A stretch of 64,000 nucleotides of DNA from contig CANQJI010000001.1 in NCBI GenBank assembly GCA_947624205.1, positions 11,739 to 75,738 of the forward strand, written 5' to 3'. This document shows, piece by piece, positions 6,973-52,290 of this stretch. The DNA is from an uncultured Akkermansia sp. (GTDB lineage Bacteria > Verrucomicrobiota > Verrucomicrobiia > Verrucomicrobiales > Akkermansiaceae). The notes beneath the pieces are model-generated. The model did not search any database. It was given only the letters and a program-made list of their open reading frames with translations, and was not told the origin of the DNA. Every line of letters starts with the position of its first letter. Within the stretch, counting starts at the first letter, position 1. Both the position numbers and the translations under genes were made by a program.

Positions 6973-7074
6973 AGTTTGATTGAGTTTCGCTGTGAAAAAT
7001 TTCCCGGGGATGCCCGGCGCGTGCGCATTATAGTCTATTCACAAGAAATGTCAAGATTGGGAAGAGAACCATTA

Positions 7075-7386
7075 GGGCAAAAGCATTAGAAAATGCGTCT
7101 GCCTATGTACGAGGTACAACACGCACGACGGTGGTAAGTGCGGATGGACAACGCGGATGCGTTGCCTCGCAGGGGCGAACCGCCGATGGGGCGGCGGTGA
7201 GTCAACTTTCGACGTACGATTTGGGGAGTTCCCGCGCTTGCGCGCGAATCTGGCGAACGAGAGGGGAGCTTCAGAGTCATCAGCATGATGACCGCTCGTT
7301 GTCATGATTTTTGATGCGTTTAAACAATAACATCAGTCAATAAGGGCATTCCTTTGTTGATTAACTTCTCCTCAAATGCGTTTGCC
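7075..7386 (+). repeat. Modular palindromic MITE-like element, copy 1
   Basis: Left hairpin GGGCAAAAGCATTAGAAAATGCGTCTGCC, TACGA heptads, the 87-nt double-hairpin module (7118-7204), the GAGTTCCCGCGCTTGCGCGCGAAT palindrome, and a right arm ending CTCAAATGCGTTTGCC. Confidence 0.85.
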
Positions 7387-7765
7387 TTGATCCCATGTAG
7401 TTCACGTGGCAGCTGAGCGCACGCAGATTTGTCGCCACATTGCCCGTACCTCCCGGCATCTTTTCTTGACGGGTAATCTCGAAAATCGGCACAGATGCTT
7501 CCGGGGAAATGCGCTCTCCCCGTCTTATTGTACGGGCGACAGGGTTTGAATATGCTTTTACTCTCGTGGTAAAAGCCGTTTTTCTCCTTACGAGAGCGCA
7601 ACATTCTGTGCTTATGGCGTGCTTTTATGATGTTCCCAATGCTTCCTTATCTATTGCCTGTATTTGCGATATAGATTTATGGTGCGCCCTTTTTGTCCGC
7701 ATGGGCATCACGGAGAACGAATTTTCGTTGTTTTTCGGAAAAGTTCCTGATAATATGAGCGGAGA

Positions 7766-8161: not shown

Positions 8162-8283
8162 CCGAACCTCCTTCTCGATGCGTCCACGCGTAACATACCT
8201 GATGGTGTTCCCGTCATGCGAAGATTTGAATCTTTCTCCTTTCGGTTCCCTCACTTTCTCGGAGCCTTTCATCAGTCCGGGAC

Positions 8284-8524
8284 AGGGCAAACGCATTAGG
8301 CAATGCGTTTGCCTATGTACGACGTACGATGTTGGATGTACGATTTATTAATAATGTGCGCGTTGCGCAGATTTTTTCGGATCATTAATGTATGCTGAGA
8401 TTCCTCTAGAGCCATCATCATGATGACTGCTGGTTGTCATGATTTTTGATGTGTATAAACATGGATATCAGTTAATAACGGCATTTTCTCTGTTGATTGG
8501 CTTCCCTCAAATGCGGTTACCCTA
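8284..8524 (+). repeat. MITE-like element, copy 2 (short subfamily), flanked by an 11-bp direct repeat
   Basis: Starts AGGGCAAACGCATTAGG and ends CAAATGCGGTTACCCTA. CAGTCCGGGAC is present at 8273-8283 and again at 8525-8535. Confidence 0.85.
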
Positions 8525-8694
8525 CAGTCCGGGACGCGAGCGTTGCTTCCGTCACGACAGTCTGATAAGATACAGCTTCACGGAGGCGCCTCGTGCCGTC
8601 CAGGATGCCATGCGAGGGCTGTAAGGCGCGATGACGTCGTATCCTGGTAATTTGTCTTTTCTCTTGGGGAAAGATGCTGTAGAATAGCGGCGTT

Positions 8695-14539: not shown

Positions 14540-14639
14540 GATGCGGGGGCAGGGCATGCGCGTTGTCCATCCGCATTTACCGCCGTCGTGCGTGTTGTAC
14601 ATCGTACATAGGCAAACGCATTTCCTAATGCGTTTGCCC
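14540..14639 (-). repeat. MITE-like element, copy 4 (partial, inverted)
   Basis: Contains the hairpin GGCAAACGCATTTCCTAATGCGTTTGCC, TCGTACA heptads and the first part of the 87-nt module (reverse complement AACACGCACGACGGCGGTAAATGCGGATGGACAACGCGCATGCC). Confidence 0.8.
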
Positions 14640-14727
14640 TGAGGTCCATATTTTTTCTTGACGCAGCGTGCAGAACGTGTCAGGATGAGGATAATCATTA
14701 GGAGGAAAAAGCGCTATAAAAACGGAT

Positions 14728-28000: not shown

Positions 28001-28934
28001 GTGTTTAGGATAAAAATCACACAGGATGAATCCATGGTGAGTTTACCCTTTGCAGAATCCTTTTCGTCGATGAGCGCGGCAACCTCACGACTTCTTGGGT
28101 TGGAACACGAATATTGCGGAGCCCTCACCAATCAGCTAGCCACGCAGATCACCGATGCGAACGGTCGCCGCATCTACGCTTACGATCAGTACGGCTCTCT
28201 GAACTATGAGCGCAGTTTTTATGGGGATAACACCTTTGCGGTGAATGAGAAATGGGACAAGTTCGGACGCAGCGTCGGCTATCAGTCACGCAAGAGCGGC
28301 TCAACAATCACAGAGGTGAACATCGGCTATGCAGAGGATGGACGCATCGAATCGGCGAGCTTCCGGCACGGCGGGGCGGAGAGGAAATTCACGTACGGGT
28401 ATCTGGCGGGCAGCAATCTGCTGCAATCGCTCGCCATGCCCAATAAGGTGACGCTGACGCAGACGTGGGAGGAGAAGCGAGACCTGCATCGAAGAGATGC
28501 TCTACACGCGGCTCAATGATGCGGGGAAGAAGGTGGAGGTGACGCGCCGCGGGTATGCGTACGATGCGCTGGTACGTCCGACTGCCCGCACGCAGGCGTA
28601 CCCGCAGCAGAAGAGTTTGCGCGGGAGGATTCCCTCGACTATAACAAGACGCTCTGAAAGCGCCCGACGGCTGGCAGGGCGCTTGGACAAAAGCGCAACT
28701 TTTGCCCCGAAGGGGCGAGGCATCGATGGGGCGAAGCCGAGGCAACTCAACGGCGCTACAACTCGGGGAGGCTCCCTACGCGTACTCCTGCGACAACATC
28801 GGCAACCGCATCACGGCGCAGGAGGATGCGGAGAGTGTCACCTACGAGGCGAACAATTTGAACCAGTACACGCAGATTGACACGGAAGGCACGGCGTTTG
28901 TTTCGGAGTACGATGCGGATGGCAACCAGATGCG
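28001..28934 (+). pseudogene. Rhs/YD core fragment with frameshifts and one 87-nt palindromic-module insertion, truncated by an IS right-end remnant
   Basis: YD repeats (IYAYDQYGSL, FGRSVGYQ, YAEDGRIESA). A 1-nt indel follows LTQTWEEKRDL. The reading frame switches between the track ORFs 28001, 28497 and 28702. Confidence 0.8.
28658..28744 (+). repeat. 87-nt double-hairpin module inside the Rhs fragment
   Basis: AAGCGCCCGACGGCTGGCAGGGCGCTTGGACAAAAGCGCAACTTTTGCCCCGAAGGGGCGAGGCATCGATGGGGCGAAGCCGAGGCA lies between ...CGCTCTGA and ACTCAACGGCGC. This is the same host position as at 38.3 kb. Confidence 0.85.
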
Positions 28935-30119: not shown

Positions 30120-30157
30120 ATCGCAAAAACACATGCAATAGAGGATGAAAGAAGCCC

Positions 30158-30392
30158 AGGGCAAACGCATTAGAAAATGCGTTTGCCTATGTACGATGTT
30201 GGATGTACGATTTATTAATAATGTGCGCATTGCGCAGTTTTTTTCGAATCATTAACGCATGCAGAGGAGGTCTTAGAGCCATCATCGTGATGATCGTTTG
30301 TCGTCGTGATTCTTGATGCGTATAAAACGGTAATACCAGTCAATAAGAGTATTTCCTCTGTTGATTAACTTCTCCCCAAATGCCTTTGCTTT
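30158..30392 (+). repeat. MITE-like element, copy 6 (short subfamily, like copy 2)
   Basis: GGGCAAACGCATTAGAAAATGCGTTTGCC hairpin, heptads, TTATTAATAATGTGCGCATTGCGCAG, and a right arm ending CCCAAATGCCTTTGC. Confidence 0.85.
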
Positions 30393-30469
30393 GGGCGGGG
30401 CGTTGTCGTCGGTTGGACGGTATTCGACTCCGCTCCCGGATCTTTGCTCCGGCACATTGGCGCCGATGG

Positions 30470-31707: not shown

Positions 31708-31990
31708 TGGCAAACGAATTAGGAAATGCGTTTGTCTCTGTTACGACGTACGATGTTGGATGTACCGACGGTGGCGCCTGGCGGCGCCTATGTACGGGGT
31801 ACGAAGTACGATGTACGATTTGGATCATAGCGCGCGTTGCGCGGGGATGCGAAGAACGCTGGTTGTCATGATTTTTGATGCGTATCAACGATGGTATCGG
31901 TCAATAAGGGCATTCCTCTGTTGATTAACTTCTCCTCAAATGCGTTTGCCCTGGGAATTCGGTGGCTACGTCGCGAGTTTGGCGAAGCAG
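31708..31990 (+). repeat. MITE-like element, copy 7
   Basis: TGGCAAACGAATTAGGAAATGCGTTTGTC hairpin, heptads, GGCGCCTGGCGGCGCC palindrome, and a right arm ...TTGATTAACTTCTCCTCAAATGCGTTTGCCC. An extra GAATTCGGTGGCTACGTCGCGAGTTTGGCGAAG module lies beyond it. Confidence 0.85.
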
Positions 31991-37497: not shown

Positions 37498-38043
37498 ATG
37501 ATGAATAAGTTTATTTTCTCGATAGCGGTGATTCTTACTGCAATGCTTGGGCAGCAATGTTCACGGACTGACATAGAAGAGGAGCTTCCGCTACGTGATT
37601 TCCTGGAGGGGGGTGATAGGGTGATCTACATAGAGGGGAACATCTTTCTTGATATGTACGAAAAGGACGATCAGCTTAAACGCAAGCATGAACGCGCGAT
37701 TGGGATGCCGGTAGAAGAGAGGTATTATAGGTATAGGGAAGAAATAACGGGGGCACGATTGAAACAATTGAGGGAATTTCTTTTAGGTTACTCTTGCATA
37801 ACACGACGTGAAACACCGATTGAAAAAGAACAAATCATTCATATAGTAGACCGCTTTCGTCCCACTGATGGCAGCTATTTGAAATTGCTGATACCCGGGA
37901 AGAAGGGAAAAGAAGTAATTATATGGTTGGAAACAGAAGAAGAGGCTGAGAAGTTTTATATGACAGTAGGTCGGGAAGGTACGGCGAGAGATAGGCGTCA
38001 GTTACGTTTGATGAGGGAGCGGGAAAAAGGGAAAAAGCAGTGA
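37498..38043 (+). CDS. Secreted or membrane-anchored hypothetical protein (181 aa); paralog of 25395-25916
   Basis: MMNKFIFSIAVILTAMLGQQCS. Its upstream leader (AGTAGAAAGGATGTT.TTTTATGATGAATAAGTT) and its position next to an IS right end are also shared with the paralog. Confidence 0.6.
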   Translation: MMNKFIFSIAVILTAMLGQQCSRTDIEEELPLRDFLEGGDRVIYIEGNIFLDMYEKDDQLKRKHERAIGMPVEERYYRYREEITGARLKQLREFLLGYSCITRRETPIEKEQIIHIVDRFRPTDGSYLKLLIPGKKGKEVIIWLETEEEAEKFYMTVGREGTARDRRQLRLMREREKGKKQ

Positions 38044-38744
38044 CGAATATAGAGAGGTCTGTGAATTGCAGAACAAAAGCAACGGGTGAAGGACAGACTG
38101 AGATGCTTAACCCAAGCCACAAAGTCAGCCGCGACCTGCTTGCGGGCATGGATTATGTGCGTGGCAATGGTCTCATCACGCAACGCCAGTACAACTACGG
38201 TGCGCTTGGGAGACCGATGACGCGCGATACGCGCTACCCGAATAAGGCGATTCATCATGCTGATACCTTCGCTTACAACAAGAGGGGTGAAAGCCCACGA
38301 GGGCTCGGAGTGGGATTGGACAACGCGCAAGCGTTGTCCGCAGGGCGAACCTCCGATGGGGCGGTGGTGAGTCAAAGCGCCCGACGGCTGGCAGGGCGAT
38401 TGGACAAAAGCGCAGCTTTTACCCCGAAGGGGCGAAGCATCGATGGGGCGATGCTGAGTCAACTCACGGGTGCGCTACTTGATGAGAATGCCTACGCCTA
38501 TGCCTACGACAACATAGGCAACCGTGAAATCGCCCAGGAGGTAACTGAGGGCATTACCTATGCCGCCAACGACCTGAACCAGTATACGCGCATCAGCATG
38601 AATAGCGAATCTATGAGAAGAGGGAAGAAGTTGAGATCGAGTTCGGAAAATTCTAATCATGTGATAAAAAAACTGGTAGTTAAATGGGACTGCTCTTGCA
38701 TTCCTAAAAAGAGTGAAGGAAGTCTGAGTATTAGCAATTCATAA
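38040..38744 (+). pseudogene. Rhs core fragment carrying two tandem 87-nt modules in frame, with an unrelated short tail
   Basis: YNYGALGRPMTRDTRYP...FAYNKRG, then 58 inserted aa, then LTGALLDENAYAYAYDNIGNREIAQE..ITYAANDLNQYTRI. After this the Rhs similarity ends, and there is no core-end motif. Confidence 0.7.
38288..38461 (+). repeat. Two tandem 87-nt double-hairpin modules embedded in the Rhs fragment
   Basis: Unit 1 is ...GGATTGGACAACGCGCAAGCGTTGTCCGCAGGGCGAACCTCCGATGGGGCGGTGGTGAGTCA. Unit 2 (38375-38461) is AAGCGCCCGACGG...TTGGACAAAAGCGCAGCTTTTACCCCGAAGGGGCGAAGCATCGATGGGGCGATGCTGAGTCA. Confidence 0.85.
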
Positions 38745-46006: not shown

Positions 46007-46034
46007 GGCAAACGCATCAGAAAACGCGTTTGCC
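46007..46034 (-). terminator. Solo left-end hairpin of the repeat family, positioned as the rplY terminator
   Basis: GGCAAACGC-atcagaaaac-GCGTTTGCC. On the minus strand it is followed by TTTCTTCG. One TACGA-heptad remnant (CACGATTTACGATG) lies next to it. Confidence 0.55.
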
Positions 46035-46061
46035 TTTCACGATTTACGATGTTCCCCGGGA

Positions 46062-49239: not shown

Positions 49240-49444
49240 TCTATGTTGTTGAACCGTATAAAATATTCTGAAATTCAGAAGTTTACAGAAATATTCATAC
49301 ATGTGCCAACGTCGTGAAAAAAAGGATTAGATTTTCCCTGCATACACGGAGATTGAACTGCCAAAAACGTGGAAGAAGGCGTCGAATCTTCCAGAAAGTG
49401 CGCAGGCGAAAACGATCAAACGAAGGCACGAGGAAGAGGAACAA

Positions 49445-49800
49445 GGCAAACGCATTTCTAATGCGTTTGCCTATGTACGATGTATGATTTTCGATGTACA
49501 ACACGCACGACGGCCCCGTAGAGGGCGCACGCGTTAGCGGGCGGCGGTGGCAGGCGGGGCCTGCCTATGTACGATGTGCGATTTACGATGTGCGATTTGG
49601 GGAGTTCCCGCGCTTGCGCGCGAATTCGGCGGACTACGGCGGGGCGTGGAATGCGGCGCTGAGGCTGGGAGTTCCCGCGCTTGCGCGCGAATTCGGCGGA
49701 GGGCATTTGTCGTCATGATTTATGATGTGTATCAACGATCATATCAGTCAACAAGAGCATTTCATCTGTTGATTAACTTCTCCTCAAACGCGTTTGCCCT
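49445..49800 (+). repeat. MITE-like element, copy 9
   Basis: GGCAAACGCATTTCTAATGCGTTTGCC hairpin, two heptad tracts, a variant GC-rich module (GGCAGGCGGGGCCTGCC), two copies of GGAGTTCCCGCGCTTGCGCGCGAATTCGGCGGA, and a right arm ending CTCAAACGCGTTTGCCC. Confidence 0.85.
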
Positions 49801-49883
49801 GGAGAACAATGCGGAAGTCGGCTGTGTTCTCATTTTGAATATCAAATCTTGCCATGCGCGCGTGTGCATGGTAGGATCCTCCT

Positions 49884-52055
49884 ATGAAACGGCTTCTCTG
49901 CTGCATGATGTTGCTTGTCGGTCTGTTGTCGGGCGCAGCTCCGGGACAGGAAGGGGACACGTCCTTTCGTGCCGCTGTTGAGGCAAGCGTAGGCAGTTTT
50001 ACCCCAGGACAGAGCTTCTACATCGCCATGCGTGGCGCGATCCCCGAGGGGCTGCATGCCTATTACCGCAATCCCGGCAGTGTCGGAGAAGCGGTATCGG
50101 CTCAGCTCCGGCTCCCGGAAGGTTTTTCGGCTGAGGGGCCGTTTTGGGAGGTTCCGCACAGGATGAGTTCGTCCGGCGGCAGTATCCTGGCGTACGGGTA
50201 TGAGAAAGAAGTGGTGGCCGTCTGGCGTGTGCAGGCTCCGCAGAATTATTCCGAGTCCGGCGCTGATTTCGTGATTGATGCCACGGCGCAGCTCTGTTCC
50301 GACGAGGGCTGTCTTCCTACGCAGGAGGTTGGCGCTTCCCTCCGGCTGTCACGCGGGGATGGCACTGCTTCTTCGGCGTGGAATCAGGTTGAGCAGCGGG
50401 TGGAGACGCTCGGCGACGTTTCTCTTTCGCAGCTCTCCGCTTCCCGAGGGACAGGCGGTGCGATCGATCTTCGCTTTACCTCTCCCGTCAATCAGCAGGA
50501 AGCGTATTTTTTCAGCGATGACAACAGCGTCGCTCCCGATGCTCCTCAGACTGTCCGCCGTGAGGGCGATGCGTGGCTCCTCTCCCTGCCGTGCAACGAT
50601 GGCAAGAATCTCCTCTATCCCGCCCCTGAGAGACGTCCGAAAACGATCAGCGGCAATCTCGTGTTTGCCGATGGGTCGCACGCACGCATTGTTGACCTGC
50701 CGATCGAGTGGAATAACGGCTCCCGGTGGGTTGTCCCCGCGGGGTTGTGGGGTGTTGTTGCCGGCCTCTTCCTCGGGGGATTTCTGCTGAACCTGATGCC
50801 CTGCGTGTTCCCCGTTCTTGGACTGAAAGTGATGGGGTTTGTCGAGCTAAGCGGTGGCAGTCGGGGCAAGGTGGTGGCGCATTCTCTGGCGTTCACGGTG
50901 GGGATTCTGGTAAGCTTCTGGGTGCTCGGGTTAATCCTCGTGGGGGTGAGCCAGGCGCAGGCTCTGTTATCTTCCCCGTGGCAGGATTGGGCGAGTATCC
51001 TCCTCTGGGGGGATGAGGGAGGCGCGGATCGCAGTTGGGCTTCGTGGATGGAGAATCAATGGGTGGTGTACGGGATCGTGGTGCTGCTGATGGTGCTCGG
51101 GCTCTGGATGTACGGGGTCTTTGAGTTCGGGGCCCGTGCCACGGGCATCGGCGGCGAATTACAGCGTCGCGGCGGTATGATTGGCAGCTTCCTGCAGGGT
51201 TTGCTCGTCACGGTGGTCGCTACCCCTTGCAGCGGACCCTTCCTCGGCGCCGCCATGGCTCCGGCGATGTCGATGCCGGGACTCTGGTTGCTCGTGGCGC
51301 TCAGCGCGATGGCTGTGGGGCTCGCCTTGCCGTATCTCGTGCTCGGCATCTTCCCCGGGTTAGTCGCTATTCTGCCGCGTCCGGGGGCGTGGATGGAATC
51401 CCTGCGCCAGGCTTTTTCCTTTTTCATGCTGGCAGCGGCGGCGTGGATGCTGGATGTGTACCTGACCTTCGTCGATGGCGGGGCAGGTGTGATGATCGGT
51501 CTCGTGGTGGTGGCAGCCGGCTGCTGGGTGTTCGGTCGTTGGTGTCCGCTGTGGCGCAGCCGGCTGAGTCGTTGGCTGGGTGGATTTGTCGCTCTCTGTC
51601 TCGTGGGTGCCGGGGTGTTCTGGTCAATGCCGCGGAACCAGGAGGAAAATGCCGCTGTCGATTGGGTTGATTGGTCGCCCGCCGCCATGGCGGAAGCGCT
51701 CGAGGATGGCTCTCCGGTTTTCGTGGATTTTACCGCCAAATGGTGCGCTACCTGCCAGGGGAATAAATTGGTGGCGTACTCTGACGAGGTCATGCAATTG
51801 TTGGAGGAGCGTGGAGTCGTGCTCATGCGGGCGGACAAAACCAAGCCCAACGCAAAAATCGATGCTGAGTTGCGGCGTCTCAATCGCAGTGCCGTGCCGA
51901 CAAATGCTCTCTACCTGCCGGGCAAAGAACCCATCGTCACGCGTGAGTTGCTCACCCCGGATTATCTGTTGGATTTCCTCCGGGAAAATCTCCCCTCTGA
52001 GGAAGGACAGAATGAGGATCCTGCGGATGATTCCAATACGGAGAATGACGGCTAG
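49884..52055 (+). CDS. dsbD: Thiol:disulfide interchange protein DsbD
   Basis: Signal peptide and an N-terminal periplasmic domain. The central TM domain carries LNLMPCVFPVL and VATPCSGPF, and the C-terminal thioredoxin fold carries FTAKWCATCQ. Confidence 0.93.
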   Translation: MKRLLCCMMLLVGLLSGAAPGQEGDTSFRAAVEASVGSFTPGQSFYIAMRGAIPEGLHAYYRNPGSVGEAVSAQLRLPEGFSAEGPFWEVPHRMSSSGGSILAYGYEKEVVAVWRVQAPQNYSESGADFVIDATAQLCSDEGCLPTQEVGASLRLSRGDGTASSAWNQVEQRVETLGDVSLSQLSASRGTGGAIDLRFTSPVNQQEAYFFSDDNSVAPDAPQTVRREGDAWLLSLPCNDGKNLLYPAPERRPKTISGNLVFADGSHARIVDLPIEWNNGSRWVVPAGLWGVVAGLFLGGFLLNLMPCVFPVLGLKVMGFVELSGGSRGKVVAHSLAFTVGILVSFWVLGLILVGVSQAQALLSSPWQDWASILLWGDEGGADRSWASWMENQWVVYGIVVLLMVLGLWMYGVFEFGARATGIGGELQRRGGMIGSFLQGLLVTVVATPCSGPFLGAAMAPAMSMPGLWLLVALSAMAVGLALPYLVLGIFPGLVAILPRPGAWMESLRQAFSFFMLAAAAWMLDVYLTFVDGGAGVMIGLVVVAAGCWVFGRWCPLWRSRLSRWLGGFVALCLVGAGVFWSMPRNQEENAAVDWVDWSPAAMAEALEDGSPVFVDFTAKWCATCQGNKLVAYSDEVMQLLEERGVVLMRADKTKPNAKIDAELRRLNRSAVPTNALYLPGKEPIVTRELLTPDYLLDFLRENLPSEEGQNEDPADDSNTENDG

Positions 52056-52290
52056 GGCCAACGCATTAGGAAATGCGTTGGCCTATGTACGATGGACGAT
52101 TTACGATGTACGATTTGAATTATAGCGCGCCAGAGGCGCGGGAATTTGGCAGAGCAAGTGCGGATGGACAACGCGCATGCGTTGCCCCGACAGGGGCGAA
52201 CCGGCAGTGTGGTGCTGGTGAGTCAATTTGGAAAGTTCGCGCGCCTGCGGCGCGGGCGCGCGTAGCAAACGCGGGAGCTGAAATCGTGAA
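52054..52290 (+). repeat. MITE-like element, copy 10 (left part only; no recognisable right arm)
   Basis: AGGGCCAACGCATTAGGAAATGCGTTGGCC hairpin with compensatory A-to-C and T-to-G changes, four heptads, the GCGCGCCAGAGGCGCGGG palindrome, and a variant 87-nt module ending GGTGAGTCAA. The dsbD TAG stop overlaps its first bases. Confidence 0.8.

Follow-up and report, generated by a model that had tools for sequence, protein, structure and literature searches.

How a short intergenic segment at 7118-7204 folds, whether that fold is under selection and how related segments came to lie around it are the questions raised by the window analysed here, meaning the whole 64,000-nt stretch of Akkermansia DNA. 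A sequence-only reading had described the segment as an 87-nt module of two hairpins, stems A and B, co-varying between copies. Covariation and a covariance model confirmed both stems and revealed two further hairpins in the unit: one strand folds into four consecutive hairpins, and into six in a long form. The hairpins of this copy are listed below.

7118-7204, + strand: full copy of the element (cmsearch 92.3 bits), coordinates recovered exactly
7122-7142, + strand: P1 hairpin, CGCAC/GTGCG; an inner C-G pair closes its GGUG loop, and it has G.A/A.A mismatches
7149-7164, + strand: P2 hairpin (stem A), CAACGC GGAU GCGUUG
7165-7176, + strand: P3 hairpin, CCUC GCA GGGG, with one U.G pair in this copy and a C-G-closed GNA triloop
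7179-7198, + strand: P4 hairpin (stem B), ACCGCCG AUGGGG CGGCGGU, with C-GA...GA-G brackets

A UCAA tail (7199-7205) lies 3' of P4. The forms of stem A in the earlier description were all present, namely CAACGC/GCGTTG at 7.15, 38.31 and 52.15 kb, CAGCGC/GCGCTG at 26.56 kb, CAAAAG/CTTTTG at 28.69 kb and AAAAGC/GCTTTT at 38.40 kb, as were those of stem B (ACCGCC/GGCGGT, AGCATC/GATGCT and ACCGGC/GCTGGT with one G-T pair) and the single mismatches in the other copies. The blocks it regarded as conserved and unpaired do recur: the pattern TGGACA, GGGCGA, TG.GG.G, GAG.CAA gave 6 matches in the window, all on the + strand, and 0 in 100 dinucleotide-preserving shuffles. The 5' block, however, is itself the co-varying hairpin P1 (CGCAC/GTGCG, CGCCC/GGGCG, CCCAC/GTGGG), the region between stems A and B contains the fourth hairpin, GCCC(C)-GNA-(G)GGGC, whose arms change length together, and stem B extends from the 6 bp listed to 7 bp with an AUGGGG loop.

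To assess the fold in larger samples, we used two alignments. The first was a MAFFT alignment of 46 distinct short copies, made without reference to structure and covering P1, P3 and P4 only; the second, a model alignment of 128 distinct copies from the best 150 of at least 210, was fitted to the model and so leans towards the structure. The results showed that 94.3% of cells pair in the MAFFT alignment, compared to 34-42% when the 3' partners are slid by 1-3 columns, and 96.4% in the model alignment, compared to 33-42%. Sliding preserves relatedness, and pairing still collapses in both alignments. Changes on both sides were found in 12 of 19 pairs (MAFFT) and 16 of 22 pairs (model), and none of 500 shuffles reached the covariation score in either case. 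P1, P2 and P4 covary strongly, and in P3 the two arms grow or shrink in step; in P4 all 7 pairs covary, with up to four Watson-Crick types at a single position (model alignment). The earlier claim that selection acts on a single-stranded structure, RNA or ssDNA, beyond shared ancestry, thus held in both larger alignments (94.3-96.4% pairing versus 33-42% slid). Among non-Watson-Crick cells, G.T occurred 36 times and A.C 15 times (binomial p ~0.005, with cells that are non-independent and a model that itself rewards G.U); since G.T exceeds A.C, the count is suggestive of the strand shown being the one that folds.

The variants recorded for each hairpin describe the same anatomy across the family. 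The unit is laid out as AA-P1-UA/UU-UGGACA-P2-P3-CGA-P4-GAGUCA(A), with purine-rich conserved linkers, and measures 84-88 nt in the short form and 84-116 nt overall. P1 occurs as CGCAC/GTGCG, CGCCC/GGGCG, CCCAC/GTGGG, CCCCC/GGGGG and CTGCC/GGCAG, its inner pair around a GGCU-type loop being C-G, G-C or A-U by copy; its pairs 5-25 to 9-21 and 12-17 covary (alignment A3), and it also appears in MFE folds. The 5' arm of P2 reads CAGCGC, CAACGC, CAATGC, CAAAAGC, CAAAGGC, CAAAACC or CAAACAC, and the 3' arm matches each time. P3 is 99% paired and occurs with CCC/GGG or CCCC/GGGG arms that lengthen jointly (GCCC-GAA-GGGC and GCCCC-GCA-GGGGC), the joint gain or loss of a base pair holding across nearly all 57 listed variants. 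P4 showed 13 fully Watson-Crick stem and loop combinations among the 110 copies listed. In the long form (110-116 nt), two extra hairpins lie inside the P1 loop, so that P1 becomes a three-way junction and the unit has six hairpins; RNAalifold, run independently on this form, returned the same helices plus two more, and one pair of the second extra hairpin exchanges C-G for U-A. A pseudoknot between the GGGG of the P4 loop and the CCCC of the P3 arm was unsupported, the loop changing to GUGUGG with P3 unchanged.

Arrays of a 60-61-nt sub-unit, P1-P2-P3 with the linker UUGGCCA, were also observed in 2-4 repeats (L033 2710-2980, L050 1530-1765, L041 370-575 and L057 6669-6843). They terminate in a variant P4, GGAGUCG UGGGG CGACUCC GAAGCAA, and the hairpins therefore act as separable modules.

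We located the element throughout the window, which holds five full copies, all on the + strand, and two truncated copies; six of the seven lie on the G-rich strand. In addition to the copy at 7118-7204, these are:

26532-26617, + strand: full copy (cmsearch 88.5 bits), intergenic, between two + genes, within TGTACGAT repeats
28657-28744, + strand: full copy (cmsearch 87 bits), in a frameshifted Rhs core fragment, at the site CGCTCGG-AA-CTCACC
38290-38374, + strand: full copy (cmsearch 97.9 bits), the first of a head-to-tail pair in the Rhs ORF 38040-38744
38374-38461, + strand: full copy (cmsearch 81.1 bits), the second member of that pair, from another subfamily; net gain of 87 nt with the frame kept
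52154-52225, + strand: 5'-truncated copy (nhmmer model positions 17-85; cmsearch 63 bits), P1 replaced
14547-14596, - strand: 3'-truncated copy with P1 and P2 only (cmsearch 25.3 bits, E 2e-4; nhmmer positions 1-50)

In translation, the 38290-38374 copy is read through in frame with a net addition of 84 nt, and an empty paralogue exists in L009. The 17.2- and 20.1-kb Rhs cassettes carry ...CGCTCGGAACTCACC... uninterrupted and are empty paralogues of the 28.7-kb site; at the same point of the Rhs sequence, the 28.7-kb cassette has one copy and the 38.3-kb cassette two head-to-tail copies. The 52154-52225 copy sits downstream of a DsbD-like gene, and the 14547-14596 copy comes after a GGCAAACGCATT...AATGCGTTTGCC hairpin and TGTACGAT repeats.

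The surroundings of these copies were inspected as well. Rhs core fragments and orphan C-terminal cassettes are arrayed across positions 16000-41900, and small ORFs resembling immunity genes lie downstream of them; the GC content of this region (41-47%) is below that of the rest of the window, it contains large duplications (17.1/20.0/28.6 kb and 22.3/37.3 kb), and an IS3-type two-ORF element interrupts the array at 21090-22375. Just downstream of the 26.5-kb copy are two tandem paralogous 132-aa ORFs (26987-27385 and 27593-27991, ~92% DNA identity), a homologue of which adjoins an Rhs gene in L009.

The intergenic copy at 7118-7204 is nested among TGTACGAT repeats that form part of a larger intergenic mosaic at 7063-7390. 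This modular mosaic recurs in the window at 8273-8526, 26337-26804, 30147-30394, 31709-31954, 49431-49802 and 52043-52230, and also at 14611-14643 and 46007-46039. Its parts are a hairpin GGCAAACGCATT-loop-AATGCGTTTGCC, tandem 8-mers TGTACGAT/TTTACGAT, a GGGGAGTTCCCGCGCTTGCGCGCGAA hairpin block and a block of ~100 nt ending in TTGATTAACTTCTCCTCAAATGCGTTTGCC, an end that reads as the first hairpin arm in inverted complement. It is in the 8-mer part that the four-hairpin element is found, many intergenic copies lying directly 3' of the ...TAC of the TGTACGAT 8-mers, and paralogous mosaics that lack the element are found in the window and in other MAGs. On the minus strand of the mosaic (7271-7324, with repeats at 8406, 26684 and 30273), a short ORF start, ATGAC(A/G)AC.AGC(G/A)GTCATC.., is conserved; it encodes MTTSGHH/R.DD.., has a TTGAC-type hexamer upstream, and may specify a leader peptide or have arisen by chance.

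To determine the extent of the family, species-representative genomes were scanned by pattern, which gave at least 93 loci, almost all in uncultured Akkermansia MAGs (~13 assemblies); many source assemblies among the matches listed came from rabbit samples. The covariance model gave at least 210 matches at E <= 1e-3 in the 684 kb of listed loci from ~13 MAGs, and copy number differed widely between related MAGs. One contig listed is binned as Acetatifactor, an assignment that is probably wrong. That contig aside, the only copy outside Akkermansia bins among the matches listed was at L070 2090-2176, binned as Haloferula. This copy is single and intergenic, with P1, P3 and P4 intact and P2 degenerate, and it adjoins a small ORF that is putatively RelE/ParE-like. 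The JGI metagenomes yielded three matches (L097, L098 and L099), all identical to the Haloferula copy, while no match was found among phage contigs (IMG/VR) or plasmids (PLSDB).

The comparison with structured-RNA databases that the sequence-only reading had suggested returned no family: Rfam 15 gave no matches across the whole window at gathering thresholds, nor anything relevant under permissive settings, whether in the region of the copy (E <= 10) or in five other loci (E <= 0.1). The literature searched on Akkermansia repeats and RNA motifs contained no description of the element. The family of structured repeats is real and strongly supported, and it is uncatalogued in Rfam and in the literature searched.

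To examine mobility, we assembled 10 filled/empty comparisons, nine of them between aligned paralogous Rhs genes or intergenic mosaics and one with the empty site inferred from coding context. At least seven distinct Rhs-gene sites carry the element, with paralogues existing both filled and empty, and the net gain at filled sites was 84, 87 or 114 nt. The element moves between sites, although many of the filled/empty differences in mosaic regions could reflect recombination between repeats rather than transposition. The core was preceded by AA in 160 of 160 copies listed, and A followed GAGTCA in 157 of 160. Empty sites showed the dinucleotides AA, AG, TA or GA, or in one case a single A, and AA-core-AA takes their place; exact cut sites are ambiguous by 1-2 nt at A in all 10 pairs. 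No terminal inverted repeats were found, the 5' end (AAAGCCCC or AACACGCA) being non-complementary to the 3' end (GGTGAGTCAA), and no target duplication longer than 2 nt was detected: the flanks are AA whatever the empty site contains, and because empty sites vary while the flanks are constant, no duplication copies the target.

Array structure was assessed in the same copies. The results showed that 51 of 141 arrays listed contain 2-5 copies, with mixed strands in only 3 arrays. Some array neighbours are identical, a sign of local duplication. In other cases the similarity between neighbours is 70-77% and that to copies at other places 79-99%, a sign of independent juxtaposition. For the 38.3-kb head-to-tail pair, in which the 38290-38374 copy is 77% similar to its neighbour and 99% similar to a copy in L057, the sequence comparison indicates a probable independent juxtaposition, not local duplication. 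In the 8-kb blocks around the copies, no transposase, HUH nuclease or recombinase adjoined any copy listed, no RAYT was present among flanking genes, and no flanking gene family other than Rhs was enriched. Candidates for an autonomous parent, with 5' and 3' halves split by a gene, were rejected, as the partial matches were sub-repeat arrays, long forms or truncations.

We further compared copies inside genes with those between genes. All 16 listed copies lying well within long ORFs were in Rhs/YD-repeat genes, all in the sense orientation, and Pfam RHS_repeat confirmed four of the host ORFs. The length of the net insert was divisible by 3 in 16 of 16 intragenic copies versus 66 of 144 elsewhere (Fisher p = 1.5e-5), a rule that argues for translation of the element and against its removal from the mRNA; intragenic copies are accordingly not introns or bypass elements, a possibility rejected because they follow the multiple-of-3 and stop-free rule. 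Judged from the reading frames, they would be translated as loops of 28-38 residues in Rhs shell proteins. Both stop-free sense frames are used by the intragenic copies, and in our own reading of the consensus two antisense frames are stop-free too; the all-sense outcome has p = 0.008 to 0.001, assuming 7-10 independent events. A protein-coding repeat was also rejected, since intergenic lengths span all three mod-3 classes and the peptides differ where stems covary. Candidates for an antisense intragenic insertion were all spurious, their frames consisting of the repeat alone. GC-rich head-to-tail arrays give stop-free antisense frames of 200-450 codons (L024 3270-3700 and 4728-4956, L038 3577-4008, L088 2140-3103), which gene callers may annotate as Arg/Pro-rich hypothetical proteins.

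One intragenic site allowed the element to be compared with its surroundings. At TTQ^PIQWSSE, the element is identical at 85 of 85 positions in five Rhs genes from four MAGs (L006, L009, L031 with two copies, and L084), while identity in the adjoining 120 nt of coding sequence is 88-97% on the upstream side and 71-84% on the downstream side. The element thus either evolves more slowly than the surrounding synonymous sites, as under purifying selection, or is kept uniform by gene conversion; both possibilities, selection in place and gene conversion, speak against neutral decay of selfish copies.

Intergenic copies showed no comparable polarity. Among the copies listed, the upstream gene was co-oriented in 50 cases and opposed in 52, and the downstream gene in 51 and 47, respectively, which argues against a cis-acting RNA with a set polarity. 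The 5' flanks of the 160 copies listed shared no conserved promoter-like sequence, and a discrete ~90-nt transcript is unlikely because of this. No intrinsic terminator was seen, P4 being followed by GAGUCAA and then by variable sequence with no U-tract. In the 8-kb blocks, the G-rich strand carried the element in 85 of 138 arrays overall and in 58 of 101 intergenic arrays, the latter not significant (p = 0.16).

Taken as a whole, we give an even chance to the reading that the element is selfish and non-autonomous and travels as a single strand in folded form, more likely ssDNA than RNA by a small margin. We infer a single-stranded intermediate, the choice of ssDNA and a trans-acting enzyme. 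Copies would spread through a single-stranded intermediate of the folding strand, ssDNA by that small margin or else RNA, and the fold, along with the conserved unpaired bases, would be what an enzyme encoded elsewhere recognises. Multiplication would be limited to lineages keeping every helix, a proposal that would account for stems that differ between subfamilies and yet stay paired. On integration, the core becomes flanked by AA on both sides and takes the place of an A-containing target dinucleotide; new copies often come to lie right next to an existing copy or in TAC/GAT repeats, giving head-to-tail arrays, which also enlarge through local duplication. Inside genes, the survivors are only sense, stop-free insertions in multiples of 3 nt, presumably as a result of selection among insertions.

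The preference for ssDNA draws on the loops and on fold energies. P3 loops were GAA, GCA, GTA or GGA with C-G closure in 67 of 75 parsed copies, the rest being mostly GACA/GATA, and many P2 hairpins read GC-GCA-GC. These match the mini-hairpin DNA motifs GCGNAGC and GCGNNAGC, whose stability is reported to be much higher in DNA than in RNA and among which is the CCGAAGG of the ssiA single-strand initiation signal (PMC13037366; PMC3201870). The fold of the window copy had z = -4.4 with DNA parameters versus -2.5 with RNA parameters. Loop motifs and one z-score are circumstantial and would favour ssDNA over RNA only slightly. IS200/IS605-type ssDNA transposition usually leaves a strand bias, and the non-significant G-strand bias of intergenic arrays counts against a selfish ssDNA element. 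Also on that side of the balance are the lack of a transposase, HUH nuclease or recombinase beside any copy in the 8-kb blocks and the lack of split or autonomous versions among the partial matches.

Three other explanations were weighed against this selfish, single-stranded one. The element might instead be a structured RNA module serving the host, its hairpins protecting, processing or insulating mRNAs or binding a protein, with selection acting at each locus and recombination spreading the copies. The element being 100% conserved where flanking coding sequence diverges would suit such a role, as would the tolerance of G.U above A.C, the conserved unpaired motifs (UGGACA, the AUGGGG loop and the C-GA...GA-G tandem G.A pairs) and an RNA MFE fold that reproduces P1, P2 and P4; the uniform sense orientation of intragenic copies could likewise reflect an RNA-level role. 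However, copies have no preferred orientation with respect to neighbouring genes, have no conserved promoter or U-tract terminator, match no Rfam family, vary widely in number between related MAGs, and are scattered over loci that have nothing in common, including coding regions in which they are translated; moreover, GNA triloops are weak in RNA (PMC13037366). We consider a host RNA module unlikely.

We hold it to be quite improbable that the host has domesticated, or tolerates, the element as a chromosomal DNA site of the REP/BIME kind, whose hairpin arrays would extrude, or fold on the lagging-strand template, and be bound by gyrase, nucleoid proteins, primase or a RAYT-like nuclease, with slow spread and vertical inheritance. 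Its mosaic, modular build alongside other intergenic repeat modules, the existence of (P1-P2-P3)n sub-repeat arrays, loop motifs that fit mini-hairpin DNA and ssi-type initiation signals, and the weak excess on the G-rich strand (85/138 arrays) are what such a site would lead one to expect, but it has no GTAG-type head and no inverted REPIN pairing, its copies being almost always direct and also lying inside genes, the intergenic strand bias is non-significant, and no RAYT occurs among flanking genes in the 8-kb blocks. The last explanation, ordinary duplicated DNA whose stems are inherited palindromes under no selection for pairing, can draw on the many near-identical copies, on arrays that are plain tandem duplications and on the fact that related sequences can beat shuffle controls without structure. 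It is highly implausible given up to four Watson-Crick types per position, double changes in 16 of 22 pairs, the fall in pairing from 96% to 33-42% on sliding by 1-3 columns with relatedness preserved, and the joint gain or loss of a base pair by the P3 arms.

To place the element among known systems, we compared it with families of small repeats. RPEs are small hairpin-forming repeats that lie between genes or in frame within genes, where they are translated and tolerated by the host protein (PMC10969869). The Akkermansia element resembles them as a small, non-autonomous hairpin repeat with both intergenic and in-frame translated insertions, its 16 of 16 intragenic copies being stop-free and a multiple of 3. 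It differs in unit length (84-116 nt versus ~150 bp), in host phylum (Verrucomicrobiota), in a presumably unrelated sequence, in having 4-6 serial hairpins versus one long palindrome, in that intragenic copies were seen only in Rhs genes, and in its frequent head-to-tail arrays. RPEs would thus seem to be an analogue, not the family of the Akkermansia element, which host and unit architecture set apart. With REP/BIME sequences it shares GC-rich hairpin repeats in mosaic intergenic arrays, stems that covary between subfamilies, the lack of TIRs and TSDs, and an ssDNA hairpin as the presumed substrate of a trans-acting enzyme. REPs, however, each consist of one 20-40-nt palindrome headed by a conserved GTAG-type motif, and they are strictly extragenic and usually in inverted pairs, whereas the Akkermansia units are direct (3 of 141 arrays mix strands) and multi-hairpin, and 16 copies lie inside ORFs.

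IS200/IS605-derived miniature elements (PATEs) were compared as well. IS608 has a TTAC target and a TCAA right end, which the Akkermansia element resembles: its 3' end is TCAA, and 71 of 160 copies listed follow ...TAC. It also lacks TIRs and TSDs, carries P1 4 nt from its 5' end and P4 6-7 nt from its 3' end, and has a strand-specific fold. On the other hand, its 5' and 3' hairpins are unlike, it has no fixed target (Rhs sites follow GGTG, TCTG, ACTC, TGCG, TGAC, AGAC and others), and in the 8-kb blocks around copies its replication-strand bias appears weak and no TnpA was seen. As for classical MITEs, the element is small, non-coding and dispersed, with presence/absence polymorphism, but has neither TIR nor TSD. 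BOX, NIME and Correia elements are similarly modular and intergenic, with variably repeated sub-units and stable folds, and numerous in one genus; yet TIRs and a TA duplication set Correia elements apart, BOX modules have another sequence and another architecture, and in neither BOX nor NIME/Correia elements do junctions follow the AA rule or insertions occur in Rhs genes. Like attC sites, the element is of a recombination type set by ssDNA structure over sequence and is of similar length; unlike them, its ends do not pair, it has no R''/R', and it shows no cassette boundaries or integron context. In function its nearest parallels are RPEs, for the in-frame translated insertions, and mosaic hairpin repeats of the REP/BIME or BOX type. 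Our best reading is that the element acts like an RPE or a REP/BIME but belongs to no known family.

Akkermansia is among the most studied gut commensals, and its repeat content is undescribed in Rfam or in the papers searched. The ~200 copies, with up to four pair types per stem position, provide an unusually clear natural covariation set, and if the fold is one of ssDNA, complex structures of that kind are rare. An AA junction without TIR or TSD misfits standard transposition chemistries and therefore points to a mobilising enzyme worth seeking; the mechanism of mobilisation has a modest chance of being new in its own right. More speculatively, and with a rather low probability, the element may represent a new class of structure-guided mobile DNA, having no TIR or TSD, moving as a folded single strand and served by an A-site enzyme new to transposition, or else copied from RNA by a bacterial reverse transcriptase, with translated loops that remodel Rhs toxin shells as a by-product. 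In practical terms, the repeats fragment Akkermansia MAG assemblies and create spurious ORFs, and they could serve as strain markers. The in-frame, sense-only Rhs insertions are a second, independent example of the RPE phenomenon, and they may add to the diversity of polymorphic toxins.
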